Positions 27,176 to 35,279 of a stretch of 64,000 nucleotides of DNA are shown here, in pieces. Position 1 is the stretch's first letter; each line of letters begins with the position of its first letter. A program made the translations under genes and the position numbers. The notes under the pieces were generated by a model. The model was not told the origin of the DNA, did no database searches, and saw only the letters and a program-made list of their open reading frames with translations. Source of the stretch: Candidatus Freyarchaeum deiterrae (GTDB lineage: Archaea; Asgardarchaeota; Jordiarchaeia; Jordiarchaeales; Jordiarchaeaceae); assembly GCA_037305845.1 (NCBI GenBank), contig CP147778.1, forward strand, positions 1,280,001-1,344,000, written 5' to 3'.

Positions 27176-27730
27176 CTATGAGTTAGTTTTTATTGGTGGA
27201 ATGTATCCCAGATTCTCCAGTTTTTTGAGTATTTTGTTTACGCTCTCCTCTAAACTTTCCTGGGATGTGTCAACTGTGACCTCGGGGTTTAGTGGTTCTT
27301 CGTAGGGCTCTTGGATTCCGGTTAGGTCGTTTAGTTCTCCCTTAATCGCCTTTTGGTAGAGGCCTTTTGGGTCTCGTCTTATACATTCTTCTAGTGGGCA
27401 TTTTACCCAGACTTCAACAAAGTTTCCTATCTGGTTTCTGGCCTGTTCACGGAAGTCTCTGAAGGGTGAGATTAATCCTACTATTACAGCTACTCCGTTT
27501 CTTACCAAGAGTTTGGCTACGTAGGCTACTCTTTTGGCGTGAGTCTCGCGATCCTCTTTGGTGAACCCTAAGTCTGGGCTCAGATTTTTTCTAACCTCAT
27601 CCCCGTCTAGAACTTCTACATTTAAGCCCTTTTTCCTGAGAGCTTTTTCTAGGGCTCGTGCTATGGTGGTTTTTCCAGACGCGGGTAATCCGGTGAGCCA
27701 GACTCCGAAGCCTTCCCTCAAGTAAATCAC
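27176..27730 (-). CDS. cysC: Adenylyl-sulfate (APS) kinase
   Basis: WLTGLPASGKTT, LDGDEVR, LGFTKEDR, RDPKGLY, TGIQEPYEEP. Confidence 0.96.
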   Translation of the reverse strand: MIYLREGFGVWLTGLPASGKTTIARALEKALRKKGLNVEVLDGDEVRKNLSPDLGFTKEDRETHAKRVAYVAKLLVRNGVAVIVGLISPFRDFREQARNQIGNFVEVWVKCPLEECIRRDPKGLYQKAIKGELNDLTGIQEPYEEPLNPEVTVDTSQESLEESVNKILKKLENLGYIPPIKTNS

Positions 27731-29103
27731 CAGTTTATTGCTTTGCCTCGCATTTCTTTTGGAATTGGTACCTCTAGTATGCTTAGAACCGTGGGAGCTA
27801 CATCGAGAATATTAAGGTTTTTAATTTCTGAGCCTGATTTTTTTGTTGGATCGTAGAGTATGAATAGTCCGTACTCGGCGTGTACCGCGTCATCTGGTCC
27901 GGTGTCGTTTTCTGACAGGTATAGGGTGTCGTATCCGATTGTTCCCGCGGATCTCCAGTATAGGTCGTCGAGGTAGACTATTAAATCGGGGGAATCGCCG
28001 TTAAGCTCGTCGTAGATTTCTTCTGGTTTGTATATTTTATTGTTAAGCTTTTCCCCATTGGGTCCATGAATATTTTTTAGTTTTTCTGCCAATTCGTCTC
28101 GGATTTTTTCGTAGTCTTCTGGTGTCACGGTTCCTCGGGGTTCTCTTCCCTCGACGTTTATGAATATTCTGGCATAGTATCCGCCCCATCCCCAGGCTTT
28201 GGTTTTGCTCCAATCTATTTGGGACTCTTTTAACTCCGCACCTCTCGCTGGCTTGTCTTTTGTTTTTAGGTATCCTTCTCCTATCAGCCACTGGTTGATG
28301 CAGAAGGCTCCCTTCATTCCTTTGGCTCCGTGGTCTGAAACTACTATTACAATTGTATTTTCATCTATGATTTCCAGTAGGCTGCCTATCTCTTTGTCTA
28401 GGTATTTGTAGTATTCTTTGACTACGTTTTCGTATTTGTTATTGAGGACGTATTTTGGGTGTTCTTTGTCGAAAAACTTCCAGAAGGCGTGGTGTATTCT
28501 GTCTAAACCGATTTCTACGAAAGCGAAGAGGTTCCACTCTTTTTTTTGTATTAGATATTTTATCACTTTGAAGTGTTGTTTGGTCATCTCGTATATTTGT
28601 TCTAAGGTTTTGTCTCTTTCCTCTGTTCTGAACTCTACGTCGAATATGTACTCTTGGAACTGTTCTTCCAGTTCATTTTTTAGTTCTTTGGGATAGGTGT
28701 AATCCTTAGTGGCGTCTGGAGTTATGAAGCAGGAGATCATGCACCCATTAACCGGCTTGGGTGGGTAGCTTGGGGGTACGCCTACCGCACAGGTTTTGAG
28801 TCCCTTTTCCGATAGGACATCCCAGACAGTTTTGTATTTTACGGATTGGGAGTTTGCTATCCACGTTTCGTACGAGTAGCTCTTTTTGTGCCTGAATCCA
28901 TATAAGCCTAGTGTCCCAGGGTCTCTGCTTGTCATCATAACCATCCAGGCGGGAATAGTTATTGCAGGGATGCAGGACTTTAGTTTGCCATAAACACCGT
29001 GGTGGATCATTTTCTTAAGGTTGGGTAGCTCGTCCTGAAATTTTTCGAAAATCAGTTCTGGGGCTGCACAGTCCAATCCTATAATCAGTACTTTCTTTGA
29101 CAT
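27727..29103 (-). CDS. AlkP-superfamily / type I phosphodiesterase-nucleotide pyrophosphatase family protein
   Basis: IIGLDCA, SCIPAITIPAW (Thr nucleophile), DRIHHAFW, VSDHG, DDAVH, LDVAPT; no signal peptide. Confidence 0.9.
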   Translation of the reverse strand: MSKKVLIIGLDCAAPELIFEKFQDELPNLKKMIHHGVYGKLKSCIPAITIPAWMVMMTSRDPGTLGLYGFRHKKSYSYETWIANSQSVKYKTVWDVLSEKGLKTCAVGVPPSYPPKPVNGCMISCFITPDATKDYTYPKELKNELEEQFQEYIFDVEFRTEERDKTLEQIYEMTKQHFKVIKYLIQKKEWNLFAFVEIGLDRIHHAFWKFFDKEHPKYVLNNKYENVVKEYYKYLDKEIGSLLEIIDENTIVIVVSDHGAKGMKGAFCINQWLIGEGYLKTKDKPARGAELKESQIDWSKTKAWGWGGYYARIFINVEGREPRGTVTPEDYEKIRDELAEKLKNIHGPNGEKLNNKIYKPEEIYDELNGDSPDLIVYLDDLYWRSAGTIGYDTLYLSENDTGPDDAVHAEYGLFILYDPTKKSGSEIKNLNILDVAPTVLSILEVPIPKEMRGKAINW

Positions 29104-29105
29104 TT

Positions 29106-30155
29106 CTATGGATTCGCTCCTAACTTCGTTAATAACAGTTCTAGAAATTTTTTCGTTTCGTTCTTGGGAACTACTGCTGCAACTACCTCTTTTTTACCGC
29201 CGGCGCTGTAACCTAGACCTTTAGCGAAATTTATTATTTCGTAGGAATCAAAGAAGTTGTTCCCGGTTCTTATATATACTTGATCCCGATCCTTAAACCA
29301 GCCCTTATTCACGACTACCACTATGTTGTCTTTGTTCTTCCAAGCGAGTCTTCTTGTGATAGCCGAAGTGGTGTTGTACGGTGTATTTATTTCCCAAATT
29401 AGAATTTTACCTTCTGTGCGGGTTGGTGGTTTACTGGTTTGTTTCTCTACGTCATCTCTTAGTTTTTCAAGATTTTTGTTCCATTTCGGGTGTTCTAAGA
29501 TTGCCTCGGGATTGTTTTTTAATAACAGGAAAGGTGCTTCGAGAACACCGTTTCTGTCTCCCATTTTGTAATTCGAGTCTATTAGTTCAGTCATTCTGAG
29601 GAGATCGTCAAAAGAAATTTCTAGCTTTTCTATGAAGTCTTCTATCACGTTGTATACGTCTTTTTTGTTCTTGAGTTTGGTTTCGTGATCGCCTACCGCT
29701 CCTAGAATGGCGGTAATATTTACGGGGTTGCCTAGATAATCGTTTACAAACCAAGATGCCGAGGGGTACTTTTCATCATTTATTCCCTCAATTAAAGGGT
29801 TGAAGTGATGAATCTCTTCTATTTTTTCTTGGATGTGGTGGTCGAAGTAAAATACCTCTGCTTTTGAAGTATTTTTTAGTTTTAAGATGTTGTTCATTGG
29901 GAAGTTTATGTCAGCTATTATTATGAACTCGTAGTTTTGTGAACTTACTCTTTTTATTTCACGGTCTTCAAGGTAGTAGTTTCCAATGGTTGGTGTATAA
30001 TTTTTAATAATTAATTCTTTCTTCATTTTTCTGAGGTACTCTAGAAATAGAGCCGCTGAGGATATACCGTCCGTATCCCAGTGGTGAATTATTAATCCTT
30101 TTTTATAGTTTTTCACACGCTCAATCTCTAGCTCACCACGTTCGGAGGGACACAT
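29106..30155 (-). CDS. DHH-family phosphoesterase (candidate PAP phosphatase)
   Basis: HHWDTDG, IAD, FDHH, GAVGD, C-terminal AGGKKEV (DHHA1-like). Confidence 0.8.
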   Translation of the reverse strand: MCPSERGELEIERVKNYKKGLIIHHWDTDGISSAALFLEYLRKMKKELIIKNYTPTIGNYYLEDREIKRVSSQNYEFIIIADINFPMNNILKLKNTSKAEVFYFDHHIQEKIEEIHHFNPLIEGINDEKYPSASWFVNDYLGNPVNITAILGAVGDHETKLKNKKDVYNVIEDFIEKLEISFDDLLRMTELIDSNYKMGDRNGVLEAPFLLLKNNPEAILEHPKWNKNLEKLRDDVEKQTSKPPTRTEGKILIWEINTPYNTTSAITRRLAWKNKDNIVVVVNKGWFKDRDQVYIRTGNNFFDSYEIINFAKGLGYSAGGKKEVVAAVVPKNETKKFLELLLTKLGANP

Positions 30156-30162
30156 CTAGTCT

Positions 30163-31302
30163 TCACTCCACGAAGGGGTTTCCCGATTTCAGAATTATGT
30201 CAGTTACCTCGGGGCGCATAATTTCCTCCGGAGGACGCTGACCTTTAACGAGCATTTCGCGTATCTTTGTTCCGCTAAATTTTATGCATTGTTCCCCCTC
30301 GTGGGGGCAGATTTTCTCATTAACCATGCCGCCGCACTTTTTGCAGTAGTAGAACTCCTTGAAGAACAGGGGTACAATTCCTAGGTCGGGAAATTCTTCG
30401 AATATGTCTTGTGCGGCGTAGGGTGGATAGAAGTCGCCTACTCCTGCGTGGTCCCTTCCCACTATGAAGTGGGTGCATCCGAAGTTTTTTCTTACGATAG
30501 CGTGGAATATTGCTTCTCGGGGACCTGCGTATCTCATTTCGAAGGGTAGGATGCTTATTACCGCTCGGTCTTTTAGGTAATAGTTTTTTATTAGGGCATT
30601 GTAGGCTTCCAGTATGACTTCGTCTCTGAAGTCACCCTTTTTCTTTTTTCCGATGACGGGGTTGATGAATACTCCGTCTACGAAAGTTAGAGCTACTTTT
30701 TGTACATATTCGTGTCCCAGATGGGGAGCATTTCTTGTTTGAAACCCCACTATGGTTCTCCAGCCTTTCTCCTTGAATAGTATCCTAGTTTCTACTGGTC
30801 TTAGATTGTATTTTGAGAAAGGGTTTTTCATCTCATTGATTAGGTCAATTTTTCCGCCTAACAATAGTTCTTCCATATCTTTTAGTTTTGCAACCCCGGG
30901 ATGTTTGGCGTCTAGGGTTCCGTAAACTTTCTGGGCGAATTCCCTTTTGTTATATTTGTACACTTCGTCTACACGCATTAGTGCTAGAGGCTTGTTTCCG
31001 TATGAGAGGGTGATGGTGTCTCCGTTTCTTGTTTCAAAATTATTCGGAGCGTCTAGGATTATGGGTAGTGTCCAGGGTAAGTCATTGGCTAATCTCTTCT
31101 CATTTAGAACGTTGGAATAGTCTTCTTCCAAGAGAAAGCCTTCCAAGGGGCTGAATACCCCCTTAGCGATGTTTTCAACGTCTTTGGCTAAACCCTCGTT
31201 GATGTTTAGGATTGGAAGTTCGCTGGCTAGTTCTTGGAATTTTTCTTTTTCATGTTCTCCTATTTCCCTGTTTACGAGTTTTCCACCATGAGGTTTCGGC
31301 AT
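30163..31302 (-). CDS. sat: Sulfate adenylyltransferase (ATP sulfurylase)
   Basis: PHGGKLVNR, FSPLEGF, FQTRNAPHLGHE, MRYAGPREA, IVGRDHAGVG, SGTKIR. Confidence 0.97.
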   Translation of the reverse strand: MPKPHGGKLVNREIGEHEKEKFQELASELPILNINEGLAKDVENIAKGVFSPLEGFLLEEDYSNVLNEKRLANDLPWTLPIILDAPNNFETRNGDTITLSYGNKPLALMRVDEVYKYNKREFAQKVYGTLDAKHPGVAKLKDMEELLLGGKIDLINEMKNPFSKYNLRPVETRILFKEKGWRTIVGFQTRNAPHLGHEYVQKVALTFVDGVFINPVIGKKKKGDFRDEVILEAYNALIKNYYLKDRAVISILPFEMRYAGPREAIFHAIVRKNFGCTHFIVGRDHAGVGDFYPPYAAQDIFEEFPDLGIVPLFFKEFYYCKKCGGMVNEKICPHEGEQCIKFSGTKIREMLVKGQRPPEEIMRPEVTDIILKSGNPFVE

Positions 31303-31331: not shown

Positions 31332-31556
31332 TTAGCCGAGATATCCTAGGGCTCTTAGTCTTTCCTTTACTTTCTCCTCGTCCTCTTTGCTGAATGGCTC
31401 CCTTTCTTCCTCCCCTTCTGCTACAATCTCATGAAGCACATACGTTACATAGCTTGAAACCGAGGTAAAGTCGGTGTTTTTAATTCTCTCTTGTATCTTC
31501 TTAAACAGCGGAGTGGGTATAGAAACAGTTGTGAATTTCTTATCCTTTTCAGACAT
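31332..31556 (-). CDS. Ribbon-helix-helix (CopG-like) protein with C-terminal ...EEKVKERLRALGYLG tail
   Basis: TTVSIPTPLFKKIQERI..FTSVSSYVTYVL RHH pattern; first gene of the sat operon. Confidence 0.85.
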   Translation of the reverse strand: MSEKDKKFTTVSIPTPLFKKIQERIKNTDFTSVSSYVTYVLHEIVAEGEEEREPFSKEDEEKVKERLRALGYLG

Positions 31557-31571
31557 TTCAAGCGCACCATT

Positions 31572-31591
31572 TAATTAAATATATTTAATTA
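31572..31591. promoter_or_regulatory. Perfect 20-bp palindrome upstream of the RHH-sat operon, candidate operator
   Basis: TAATTAAATATATTTAATTA equals its reverse complement, 16-35 bp upstream of the start codon. Confidence 0.45.
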
Positions 31592-31702
31592 TAATCCCTA
31601 GCATATTAAAGATTTTCATGTCTATAAACACCTAAAAAAGATGCCTGTGGAAGAGTTATAAAAGCCCATTTAAAGAGAATTTAGAGAGGTTACTAGTATT
31701 GT

Positions 31703-33280
31703 TTATATCTTTTTCAGTTCCTTTAATTTTTTGATTTTTCCCCTTAAGAGGATTTTTTCTGTTTCCATGTCTTGGCTTATAATCTCCTTTTTGCTTAGCT
31801 CTGAACTCTCCTGGAATATTTCGGTTAGGACTCTGCCATCCATATCACGTGGGATCGGTACTTGAAACATGTGGAGTACTGTGGGAGCGAGGTCGTAGAT
31901 TTTCGCGTTTTCTATCCTGTATCCCTCTTTGATGTCTGGACCATAAGCTATGAATACGCCTTGAAGTCTGTGATACGCTGACCAAACCTTATTTTCAAGG
32001 TCCCAGCTACTTCCCTGTAGAATGTCGAATATTCTGTAGCCTTCGTTCGGTATTACTACAAGGTCTGGTGCTAGCTCCAGATGTTCACCCTGATATATAT
32101 CCTCCTTCCTCTTGACGTCGATTACCAGATTTTCCCCAGTTTTCGGATTTTTTATCCCGTTTATTTCTTTTATTAGTTTGGTCCTTAGCGTTTCGTAACC
32201 GTTTCGGTCATGATTCAGATTTAAGAATATACCGCATTCTCCTACATTTATGGCCTTTGTTGTATTCCAGTCTGTTTGAGCTATCAAATCAGAAGCTTCT
32301 GCTAAATTAATCTTCAATTGCAGTCTGATGAGGTTTTTTCGGGGTATTAGTCGAACGATTTTATCTAAACCTAGTTTACGGATTACTTGTGATGTTTTCT
32401 TGTTGTATAACCGGAGGCTGGTTAATAGAATGTTTAAAGTGGATAGGTTTAGGTATCCTTTCTCCAGGAGCCACCGGTTCAGGTAGAATGTCGCTTTTAC
32501 ACTAGTAAAACCATGGTCGGACATGATTAAAATGTTAGTATCCTTTCCAAGCTGGTTGAGTAGCTTTCCGATTTCTGCGTCGATTACTTTCCAAATTTTT
32601 TCAATGACTCCACCGAATCTTTCATCTCGGTCCTCCATTTCTTTCCAGAAAAAGTGTTGTATGGCATCCGTGTAAAAGAGTGTTATGTGAGTAAAATCAG
32701 GCGAGTAACTCTGAATTAGATATTTTGTAGCCGCAAACCTTTTTTTAATAAGGTCTTCTACCTCTGAAACGAGTTTATTTTTTCTAGGTAATTGGCGCCT
32801 GGGATCAAGGGTGTATTCGCTAGGGTTTATCTTGTAGTCATACTTTTCGACCAGAGTCTTTTTCAAATCCTTTGGAAAGGTGTAATCCGCGGAATCAGAC
32901 ATGGGAAATCCGGAAACTATAAAGCCTTTAATTCTTCTTGGGGGGCATGAAAGGGGAAGGTTTATGACCCCAGAAGTTAAATCCTGCTCCCCTAAGTAGT
33001 CCCAAATTTCCTTACTTTGAAAAGGATCAGAATACATTACCTTTAATTCGGGATTTTTGACATCGAATCCGCACCAACTGTACAGGCCCAACTTCCCGGG
33101 ATTCTTACCAGTAGAATAAGATTTCCAAGCTGGCGCAGTTGAAAAGGGATAGGTACTCTGCAAATTCCCCCAAACCCCTTTTTCCATTAGCCTTCTAAAA
33201 GTTGGTAACTTTCCTTGCTCAACCAAGGGTAAAAGTATGTTCCAAGTCGCACCATCCAAACCTATTACTAAGACTTTCAA
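31703..33280 (-). CDS. AlkP-superfamily (NPP-like) protein, long form, copy 1
   Basis: VIGLDGATW, STYPFSTAPAW, TGKNPGK, DAIQHFFW, MSDHGF, IYDLAPTVL, DMDGRVL; TTG start. Confidence 0.9.
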   Translation of the reverse strand: MKVLVIGLDGATWNILLPLVEQGKLPTFRRLMEKGVWGNLQSTYPFSTAPAWKSYSTGKNPGKLGLYSWCGFDVKNPELKVMYSDPFQSKEIWDYLGEQDLTSGVINLPLSCPPRRIKGFIVSGFPMSDSADYTFPKDLKKTLVEKYDYKINPSEYTLDPRRQLPRKNKLVSEVEDLIKKRFAATKYLIQSYSPDFTHITLFYTDAIQHFFWKEMEDRDERFGGVIEKIWKVIDAEIGKLLNQLGKDTNILIMSDHGFTSVKATFYLNRWLLEKGYLNLSTLNILLTSLRLYNKKTSQVIRKLGLDKIVRLIPRKNLIRLQLKINLAEASDLIAQTDWNTTKAINVGECGIFLNLNHDRNGYETLRTKLIKEINGIKNPKTGENLVIDVKRKEDIYQGEHLELAPDLVVIPNEGYRIFDILQGSSWDLENKVWSAYHRLQGVFIAYGPDIKEGYRIENAKIYDLAPTVLHMFQVPIPRDMDGRVLTEIFQESSELSKKEIISQDMETEKILLRGKIKKLKELKKI

Positions 33281-33692: not shown

Positions 33693-35279
33693 TTATATCT
33701 TTTTTGTTTCCTTTAATTTTTCTATTTTTTTCTTTATAAGAACTTTTTCTGTATCCACATCTCTGTACACAGTCTCTTTTTTAGCCAACTCGGAGTTTTC
33801 CCGGAATATTTCGGCCAAGACTCTGCCATCCATATCTCTTGGAATCGGTACTTGGAACATATGAAGTACTGTGGGAGCGAGGTCGTAGATTTTCGCGTTT
33901 TCTATCTTGTTCCCCTTTCTAATATCTGGACCGTATGCTATGAATACGCCTTGAAGTTTATGAAATGCTGACCAAACTTCATTTTCATAATCCCAGTTAT
34001 TTCTGAGTATACTGTCGTATATTCTGTAGCCTTCGTTCGGTATTACTACAAGGTCTGGTGCTAGCTCCAGATACTCTCCGTGATATATTTCCTCCTTCCT
34101 TTTGACATCGGTTAATAGATTTTCCCCTGTTTGTGGGTTCTTTATCCTTTTCATTTCTGTTATTAATTGTGTCCTTAGCGTTTCGTAATCATTTCGGTCA
34201 TGATTCGGATTTAGGAAAACGCCACAATCGCCCACATTGATGGCCTTAGTTGTACTCCAGTCTGCTTGAATTATCAACCTAGGACTTGGGATTTCTGATG
34301 GGTTTAGTCTCTGTTGAAGTTCAATTAATGTTGACTTGGGTATAAGCCGCTCAACAATTTTATCAAAACCTAGTTTACGGATTACTTGTGATGTTTTCTT
34401 GTTGTATAACCGGAGGCTGGTTAATAGGATGTTTAAAGTGGATAGGTTTAGGTATCCTTTCTCCAGGAGCCACCGGTTCAGGGAGAATGTTGCTTTTAAG
34501 CCAGTGAAACCATGGTCGGACATGACTAAAATGTTAGTATCCTTTCCAAGCTGGTTGAGTAGCTTTCCGATTTCTGCGTCGATTATTTTCCATATTTTTT
34601 CAATGACTCCACCGAATCTTTCATCTCTGTCCTCCATTTCTTTCCAGAAAAAGTGTTGTATGGCATCAGTGTAAAAGAGTGTTGTGTGAGTAAAATCAGG
34701 CGAGTAATTCTGAATTAGATATTTTGTCGCTTCAAATTCATTTTTAATAAGTTCTTCTATCTCTGAAATGAGTTTATTTTTTCTGGGTAATTGGCGCTTT
34801 GGATCAAGGGTGTATTCGCTAGGGTTTATCTTGTAGTCATACTTTTCGACTAAGGTTTTTTTCAAATCCTTTGGAAAGGTGTAATCTGCGGAATCAGACA
34901 TGGGGAACCCGGAAACTATAAAGCCTTTAATTCTTCTTGGGGGGCATGATAGGGGAAGGTTTATGACCCCGGAAGTTAGACCTTGTTCCCCTAAGTAATC
35001 CCAAATTTCCTTACTTTGAAAAGGATCAGAATACATTACTCTTAATTCAAGATTTTTGGCGTTGAATTCGCACCAACTGTACAGGCCCAACTTCCCGGGA
35101 TTCTTACCCGTAGAATAAGATTTCCAAGCTGGCGCAGTTGAAGAGGGATAGGTACTCTGCAAATTCCCCCAAACACCTTTTTCCATAAGCTTTCCAAGAG
35201 TTGGTAACTTTCCTTGCTCAACCAAGGGTAAAAGTATATTCCATGTTGCGCCGTCTAAACCAATTACCAAGACCTTCAA
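33693..35279 (-). CDS. AlkP-superfamily (NPP-like) protein, long form, copy 2
   Basis: Tandem paralogue of 31703-33280 with the same motifs. Confidence 0.9.
   Translation of the reverse strand: MKVLVIGLDGATWNILLPLVEQGKLPTLGKLMEKGVWGNLQSTYPSSTAPAWKSYSTGKNPGKLGLYSWCEFNAKNLELRVMYSDPFQSKEIWDYLGEQGLTSGVINLPLSCPPRRIKGFIVSGFPMSDSADYTFPKDLKKTLVEKYDYKINPSEYTLDPKRQLPRKNKLISEIEELIKNEFEATKYLIQNYSPDFTHTTLFYTDAIQHFFWKEMEDRDERFGGVIEKIWKIIDAEIGKLLNQLGKDTNILVMSDHGFTGLKATFSLNRWLLEKGYLNLSTLNILLTSLRLYNKKTSQVIRKLGFDKIVERLIPKSTLIELQQRLNPSEIPSPRLIIQADWSTTKAINVGDCGVFLNPNHDRNDYETLRTQLITEMKRIKNPQTGENLLTDVKRKEEIYHGEYLELAPDLVVIPNEGYRIYDSILRNNWDYENEVWSAFHKLQGVFIAYGPDIRKGNKIENAKIYDLAPTVLHMFQVPIPRDMDGRVLAEIFRENSELAKKETVYRDVDTEKVLIKKKIEKLKETKKI

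Follow-up and report, generated by a model that had tools for sequence, protein, structure and literature searches.

MetJ is a ribbon-helix-helix (RHH) repressor of sulfur amino-acid genes, which binds cooperatively to tandem 8-bp met boxes with SAM acting as corepressor. Mnt of P22 combines an RHH dimer with a tetramerising C-terminal helix, its operator consisting of two or more adjacent dimer sites. RHH antitoxins of the ParD, CcdA and RelB type are autorepressors with an N-terminal RHH domain and a flexible, partner-binding C-terminal peptide, the disordered tail folding upon contact with the partner. C-terminal peptides and pathway enzymes also meet in sulfur metabolism: in CysE-CysK a C-terminal peptide docks in the active site of an enzyme, the free C-terminal Ile being essential, and in CymR-CysK of Bacillus subtilis a transcription factor is controlled by binding of a pathway enzyme. 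In the Dlt pathway, the membrane microprotein DltX is acylated by an MBOAT enzyme and carries a functionally essential C-terminal Tyr motif.

The cluster PYCH_17520-17560 of P. yayanosii comprises the same five genes in the same order as the locus analysed here, copG-sat-pApase-phosphodiesterase-cysC, and is also present in other archaea (PMC8268124). Its DHH enzyme was characterised there as a pAp phosphatase, the phosphodiesterase was guessed to remove PPi and the first gene was annotated as coding for a putative copG transcription factor, one 'potentially regulating the pathway'. Variants of the cluster with TauE and sulfotransferase are mentioned; in the accessible part of the paper no experiment on the regulator is reported, and neither a C-terminal tail nor an operator nor a spread into bacteria is described. 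In Palaeococcus, CopG and sat are co-induced by sulfur (PMC6981617). Our literature search found no paper on the tail reported below, on its motif, on the operator or on RHH together with sat. What has been published already is the cluster with its 'putative copG regulator'; judged by this search, tail and operator are apparently new.

Here, we analyse the 74-aa protein, RHH-LGY, encoded by the first gene of such an operon in Candidatus Freyarchaeum deiterrae, within a stretch of 64,000 nucleotides which we call the window. The genes RHH-sat-DHH-AlkP-cysC follow each other on one strand (Table 1), and the order copG-sat-DHH-PF01663-cysC is found in the window, in relatives and in the published cluster (PMC8268124). 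We favour, with a probability of about 0.6, a reading according to which RHH-LGY is the autorepressor of this PAPS-making/sulfation operon, its C-terminal tail being a portable interaction tag.

Table 1. Features of the RHH-LGY operon, its promoter region and the encoded regulator; positions are those of the window.
Feature	Position	Strand	Basis and remarks
cysC, APS kinase	27176..27730	-	PF01583; own end ..KKLENLGYIPPIKTNS
AlkP_op, tail-less PF01663 enzyme	27727..29103	-	Pfam
DHH phosphoesterase, probable pAp phosphatase	29106..30155	-	PF01368; characterised P. yayanosii homologue (PMC8268124)
sat, ATP sulfurylase	30163..31302	-	PF01747 and PF14306; 29 nt downstream of the RHH gene
RHH-LGY gene	31332..31556	-	ORF list; 74 aa; heads the operon
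LGY tail module, residues 55-74, FSKEDEEKVKERLRALGYLG	31335..31394	-	AF2 helix 57-70; conservation
Acidic variable linker, residues 47-54	31395..31418	-	pLDDT below 50 at residues 48-52; gapped in the alignment
Predicted ribbon-helix-helix DNA-binding domain, residues 8-46	31419..31535	-	AF2, Foldseek, PF01402 matches in relatives
Candidate operator TAATTA-AATATATT-TAATTA	31572..31591	.	16-35 nt upstream of the ATG
Putative TATA-like box TTTAATA	31604..31610	-	Read from the sequence; upstream of the operator
Long AlkP (PF01663), paralogue 1	31703..33280	-	Pfam; upstream of the RHH gene; basic amphipathic helix at the end
Long AlkP (PF01663), paralogue 2	33693..35279	-	Pfam; upstream of the RHH gene; same kind of ending

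Fold and gene context of the RHH-LGY protein

An earlier note on this DNA had described the open reading frame, its product and the C-terminal endings of the neighbours, and the ORF list and Pfam assignments of the neighbours bear this out in every detail. The protein, ending in EREPFSKEDEEKVKERLRALGYLG, starts with the pattern KKFTTVSIP-helix-TGFTSVS-helix, which fits the strand-helix-turn-helix of RHH proteins with FTTVSIP as strand, helix A, a G-F-T-S turn and helix B. The AF2 monomer model shows helices at residues 15-25, 33-48 and 57-70 and disorder at residues 48-56, the N-terminal strand not being formed. The best Foldseek matches are nearly all RHH proteins (NikR, Arc, ParD, ORF56, VapB), superposing with an rmsd of 1.3-3 Å over 40-50 residues at E-values all above 0.1. 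The window's protein matches no Pfam or NCBIfam model and a PDB sequence search with the family profile returned nothing meaningful; among 105 diverse relatives eight match PF01402 RHH_1 (best E 7.8e-6), and source annotations of relatives read CopG family or Arc/MetJ-type RHH. From the predicted fold and the relatives, we infer that it is an RHH protein. As in RHH antitoxins, a putative N-terminal autorepressor domain is followed by a flexible, putatively partner-binding C-terminal peptide, and ParD and VapB are among the Foldseek matches. Unlike in these systems, no toxin family was seen among the genes neighbouring the RHH genes, the tail is shared with enzymes, and its partners would be proteins of the sulfate pathway.

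A word-indexed search yielded 1759 relatives; the best 120, at 74-88% identity, belong to the window's own group of Asgard archaea (Jordarchaeia/Freyarchaeota) and to Thermoplasmatota/DHVE2, Methanofastidiosia and Bathyarchaeia. In an exhaustive profile search the family comprises 1448 clusters at 50% identity, reaching through archaea, Chloroflexota and Actinomycetota. Gene context was read from the best 80 loci of at least 494 matching species genomes (one genome per species), which include Hadarchaeota, Altiarchaeales, Thorarchaeota, Chloroflexota/Dehalococcoidia and Actinomycetota; the counts use the 75 of these 80 loci with at least 1.2 kb of downstream sequence. The gene directly following the RHH gene is sat in 54 of the 75 and a CysD-like gene of the PAPS_reduct family, usually accompanied by an EF-Tu-like CysN, in 11, so that an ATP sulfurylase gene directly follows in 65/75 and is present anywhere in the locus in 72/75, the median gap between RHH and next gene being 10 nt. 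Neighbours confirmed by Pfam in relatives are CysD-like proteins, CysN, short PF01663 proteins, P-loop sulfotransferases and TauE. The earlier note would have been refuted by RHH-LGY genes occurring apart from sat/AlkP loci; the outcome of this check is split, the genes being tied to sat or cysDN and independent of AlkP. In the same 75 loci, the median identity to the window's proteins is highest for the RHH protein (74%), followed by sat (61%), AlkP_op (56%), cysC (51%) and DHH (39%).

The slot between DHH and cysC holds AlkP_op in 23 loci and a 187-aa P-loop sulfotransferase in about 29, six complete operons having neither. This shared slot fits AlkP_op performing the job of the sulfotransferase or an equivalent one.

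Three further observations concern the arrangement of these loci. AlkP_op and the 187-aa sulfotransferase were not seen together in RHH-led operons (loci L003-L082). In two Thorarchaeota loci (L060, L073), the RHH gene stands after cysC (sat-AlkP-cysC-RHH or sat-cysC-RHH) and not at the operon head. A second RHH-LGY copy, 86% identical, lies outside the window (L002:1261-1725; G000 C1:530123-530587). Downstream of this copy come a 67-aa remnant of sat, corresponding to its N-terminus (51% identity over 49 aa), and, beyond it, an unrelated ABC ATPase and a CobW-like GTPase, so that the operon head is partially duplicated at this second locus.

TAATTA repeats upstream of RHH genes

The candidate operator of the window holds an 18-bp palindrome, AATTAAATATATTTAATT, and agrees with the consensus TAATTA-N4-TAATTA at 15 of 16 positions. 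Across the window five matches with at most one mismatch are present versus 0.96 expected, two of the five lying at the operator site, and the position of the TTTAATA box corresponds to that of TTTTATA boxes in DHVE2 loci. Aligned upstream regions show TAATTA hexamers at a centre-to-centre spacing of 10 bp (e.g. TAATTAAATATAATTA), often in 2-5 copies, which in archaea lie between the TATA-like box and the Shine-Dalgarno/ATG and in Chloroflexota over the -10 box. The exact 16-mer is found within 150 nt upstream of the RHH gene in 36/68 loci, from Asgard archaea, Thermoplasmatota, Bathyarchaeia and Chloroflexota, and many loci without it carry one-mismatch versions. Across the 68 loci, 48 exact sites upstream of RHH genes (4.7/kb) stand against four in the 791 kb elsewhere in the loci (0.005/kb), an approximately 930-fold enrichment, and all four of the latter lie upstream of two TauE genes which precede the RHH gene in locus L070. 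On comparative grounds, the enriched upstream repeats speak strongly for sequence-specific DNA binding and for autoregulation by the putative repressor. The linkage to sat or cysD together with an operator in the promoter therefore suggests an autoregulator of sulfate-activation/sulfation operons, and sequence-specific binding to a conserved operator would account for the extreme conservation of the RHH head. The coupling of the pathway to DNA binding, suggested in the earlier note, becomes plausible because this conserved operator exists. Like MetJ, RHH-LGY would be an RHH repressor of a sulfur pathway acting on tandem short repeats; unlike RHH-LGY, MetJ has no LGY tail, and its operator is a different one.

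In locus L070 (5544-6746) two pairs of exact operators stand before two TauE permease genes, followed by RHH-sat-AlkP-cysC, and owing to these sites the regulon can include a putative sulfate/sulfite permease. Within the 3.58-Mb genome the exact hexamer pair occurs only before the second RHH copy, in the form of four tandem hexamers. A wider TAATTA regulon was considered and rejected, the 56 one-mismatch matches in the genome (41 intergenic-like) being mostly AT-rich noise.

The LGY tail on the regulator and on other proteins

Read off the sequence, the tail consists of an aromatic residue, an S/T N-cap, an acidic turn, a hydrophobic face (V63/L67/L70) and a Gly-Tyr C-cap, and it is predicted to form one amphipathic helix between these two caps, scoring about 84 in structure prediction when isolated from the rest of the protein. 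Its RLRALGY segment is invariant in 24/24 aligned relatives from different phyla, and a GY tail ends 136 of the 150 best cluster representatives (50% identity), the remainder seeming truncated. In 105 diverse representatives, 37-64% identical to the window's protein, L67, G71 and Y72 are the only invariant columns, the invariance of G71 and Y72 being partly due to the selection of these sequences and that of L67 not. The Tyr whose conservation the earlier note had made a point to check is invariant in both the 24 and the 105 sequences, and in no tail on any carrier examined is it replaced by Phe. To judge from these alignments, the tail is the most conserved part of the 1448-cluster family. 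Unusual architectures comprise an RHH protein with two LGY tails in tandem (P0208), a chain of three RHH domains bearing two LGY tails (P0129) and 212-aa proteins in which an additional N-terminal RHH and a middle domain precede a C-terminal RHH-LGY unit (P0121-P0123).

We find the same tail on proteins of other folds. The earlier note had described such a tail as common on sulfatase/AlkP-family proteins, which is borne out by four bacterial long PF01663 proteins (in L093 and L111) and a PF00884 sulfatase (in L100) that end with ..EE..LRERLRALGYIE or similar. Among the 56 candidates of a length-unrestricted search with the tail as seed there was neither an AlkP nor a sulfatase; this is a false negative of the word index, as the tailed AlkPs of these loci demonstrate. 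The loci stem from a metagenome scan that sampled bacterial CysC genes, and small RHH-like proteins of 63-64 aa encoded in them carry the tail as well. APS kinases of candidate division TA06 have their own ...LRELGYL end, then a Gly/Glu linker and then Y-T-K-EEEEKVKERLRALGYM, giving the overall pattern ...LGYL-linker-YTKEEEEKVKERLRALGYM. Such a linker-attached second LGY tail is present in about 23 of the 72 complete CysC genes sampled, about a third (L083-L162, e.g. L093:6986-7603 and L125:6998-7600; P0125-P0128). CysD-like enzymes encoded beside RHH genes end with ...MQKLRALGYM, aligning with ..MEEKKRQGY, the C-terminus of CysD in 1ZUN_A. By its distribution the LGY tail is a portable, separable 20-residue unit. 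In the loci examined it was never seen on Sat, DHH, the sulfotransferase, AlkP_op, CysN or TauE, and in the window's genome the full tail is present only on the two RHH copies.

The PF01663 enzymes of the window itself lack the tail. AlkP_op ends abruptly with ...PIPKEMRGKAINW (...EMRGKAINW), as do its 40-odd orthologues, which all stop straight after ..DVAPT.L..LG.P.P..M.G.., and the long paralogues end with ...LRGKIKKLKELKKI (paralogue 1) and ...KKKIEKLKETKKI (paralogue 2), without GY. At the C-termini of the two long AlkPs, the basic helices (TEKILLRGKIKKLKELKKI) space their hydrophobic residues as the LGY tail does (L..[KR][LI]..L), with charged residues replacing GY, and may be a diverged form of the LGY helix.

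The tail could also be a generic helix-capping ending of the type L..LGY with no specific role, its recurrence reflecting descent from local gene fusions. Short L..LGY endings are found on unrelated proteins of this genome, i.e. a CheY-like receiver and a 165-aa protein, as well as in the native ends of APS kinases, and the cysC-RHH order in Thorarchaeota could be a source of CysC-tail fusions. The apparent CheY-type receiver (L163:2929-3381; G000 C1:3257928-3258380) ends with KKFSEEKVAEFVESRAKELGYLP, a loose look-alike of the tail, and adjoins an apparent large histidine-kinase gene outside any sulfate context. A generic ending is very improbable considering that 19 residues are identical between different carriers and between domains of life, and considering the conservation of the tail within the family.

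Possible roles of the tail

Operons of the AlkP_op type (23), the sulfotransferase type (29), the sat-only type (6) and the cysDN type (13) share one and the same tail consensus, FSKEDEE[KR]VKERLRALGY. An orthologue of AlkP_op was not found in five sulfotransferase-type genomes, which are MAGs and possibly incomplete; two of these have no AlkP match at all and two only a distant long AlkP elsewhere. The earlier note had suggested that the tail is supplied in trans to AlkPs lacking it. This holds insofar as the tail is a separable module, present in cis on AlkP and sulfatase enzymes elsewhere and on a separate small protein here. The identical consensus and the AlkP_op orthologues not found in those genomes argue that the tail is not maintained to complement tail-less AlkPs, and on this comparative evidence AlkP_op cannot be the sole reason for it. 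A more specific form of this idea has the tail docking in or near the catalytic cleft of AlkP_op as a lid or regulator, the occupancy of the enzyme controlling the repressor as in CysE-CysK and CymR-CysK. Long relatives of AlkP_op being tailed in cis and AlkP_op never would agree with such docking, as would the AlkP genes adjoining tailed CysC in 17/23 cases versus 6/49 for tail-less CysC (Fisher p = 4e-7, a statistic which ignores phylogeny). Apart from the unchanged consensus in the 29, 6 and 13 operons without AlkP_op and the five genomes just mentioned, it is opposed by five CysC-tail loci in which only sat stands beside cysC. RHH-LGY also differs from CysE-CysK and CymR-CysK, which involve other proteins and folds, in the 0-3 variable residues following its Tyr and in the interaction being putative here. 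Docking to AlkP_op is conceivable and, in our view, unlikely.

According to the central proposal of the earlier note, the Tyr is transiently sulfated, relaying sulfate from the PAPS-linked AlkP to the glycan-acting paralogues or reporting PAPS flux to the DNA-binding domain. Tyr72 is indeed invariant, without Phe on any carrier, and the tail is met only in contexts of sulfate activation or sulfation; PAPS_reduct-family genes stand beside tailed CysC in 0/23 cases versus 14/49 for tail-less CysC. Moreover, the CysD-like tail aligns with the CysD counterpart of the sulfo-carrier region of CysH, whose C-terminal ECGLH tail, at the homologous position of the PAPS_reduct fold, is a real covalent sulfo-carrier, on Cys. 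Unlike CysD and CysH, however, the RHH tail has neither a Cys nor a PP-loop domain, and most RHH operons use Sat and not CysD. In the alignment and the AF2 model Tyr72 lies inside a hydrophobic helix C-cap (L67, L70, Y72, L73) with basic residues adjacent, not in an exposed acidic context as expected for sulfation. The same tail is kept with AlkP, with a sulfotransferase or with neither, persists where AlkP was not found, and is also carried by enzymes acting upstream of PAPS, i.e. CysD-like proteins and APS kinase. The GY[FM] end is likewise present on CysD of assimilatory bacteria, which is not known to carry a sulfo-Tyr. The sulfo-carrier reading is not supported by these data and we give it hardly any credence. 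The accompanying analogy to DltX extends to a small protein with a C-terminal Tyr motif and breaks down for the membrane anchor and the partners: RHH-LGY has a soluble DNA-binding domain and no hydrophobic (membrane) segment in its 74 residues, many operons with an identical tail lack AlkP, the partner proposed for it, and no structural or contextual counterpart is seen.

Since the folds of Sat and CysD are unrelated, there is no operon-encoded protein which all operon types have in common; AlkP_op, the sulfotransferase, DHH and CysC are each absent from some of them. A common enzyme receptor is therefore not evident, and the constraint on the tail would have to come from the repressor itself, from other tails or from a receptor or ligand outside the operon. 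As sulfate activation chemistry, and no single protein, is what all operon types share, tail and RHH core might form a site for a small effector (sulfate, APS, PAPS or pAp), as MetJ does for SAM, the tail having the same ligand-lid role on the enzymes. By its position, the tail of CysD corresponds to the active-site lid of the PP-loop fold. A nucleotide site is hardly to be expected on a helix of 15 residues following a disordered linker, though, and the tandem tails of P0208 fit a docking tag better, which makes the effector site quite unlikely.

We return to the reading of RHH-LGY as an autorepressor with an interaction tag. Putative RHH dimers would bind TAATTA hexamers one helical turn apart; as the hexamers stand between TATA box and start codon in archaea, or over the -10 box in bacteria, binding would block transcription of RHH-sat-DHH-AlkP-cysC, from which we infer repression. 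The C-terminal 20 residues would fold autonomously into an amphipathic helix tethered by a flexible acidic linker. This helix looks like a protein-interaction tag and would be a portable one, being carried as well by APS kinase, long AlkP/sulfatase and CysD-like ATP sulfurylase. Such a tag might tie the oligomeric state or the DNA occupancy of the repressor to pathway proteins. No other tailed protein being present in this genome, co-assembly with tailed enzymes cannot be the role of the tail here, and it would act by self-association or on a tail-less partner. A possible route is bundling of the tails of neighbouring dimers on the 10-bp arrays, as in Mnt, with which RHH-LGY shares the order of RHH domain and C-terminal helix (57-70, following a disordered linker) and operators of at least two repeats, here hexamers; unlike the tail of RHH-LGY, the helix of Mnt is not common to metabolic enzymes. 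Alternatively, the tail may dock on a tail-less partner. In either case the Tyr would be a binding anchor and not a sulfate carrier.

Several observations speak against this autorepressor/tag reading: the window's protein matches no RHH model directly and the Foldseek E-values exceed 0.1, the operon types have no encoded protein in common, the genome encodes no further tailed protein, short L..LGY endings are found on unrelated proteins, and the Tyr is strict, never Phe, in every tail seen, suggesting more than hydrophobic packing. The Tyr might be chemically engaged, for instance by transient sulfation or adenylylation within an active site that binds sulfonucleotides, the tail acting as a covalent flux sensor or relay from PAPS metabolism to the repressor and the tailed enzymes. 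We keep this chemical role in consideration because the invariance of the Tyr is unbroken, at a very low probability. Three known types of C-terminal signal were rejected as explanations of the tail: a proteasomal HbYX motif, the Tyr not being penultimate in most members; a membrane-targeting helix, the tail being net acidic; and a SAMP/ubiquitin-like tail, a GG ending being absent.

How sulfate activation is regulated in archaea has hardly been studied. A sharper question arising from our analysis is what the tail-less PF01663 enzyme does, which in these operons occupies a slot filled elsewhere by a canonical sulfotransferase. One repressor-operator pair, with TAATTA repeats and predicted binding, is conserved across two domains of life and is directly testable. 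If the LGY helix is a pathway-specific tag on the repressor and on enzymes of three or four unrelated folds, this would be an unusual tie between gene control and enzymes, or would point to the assembly of a sulfation metabolon.
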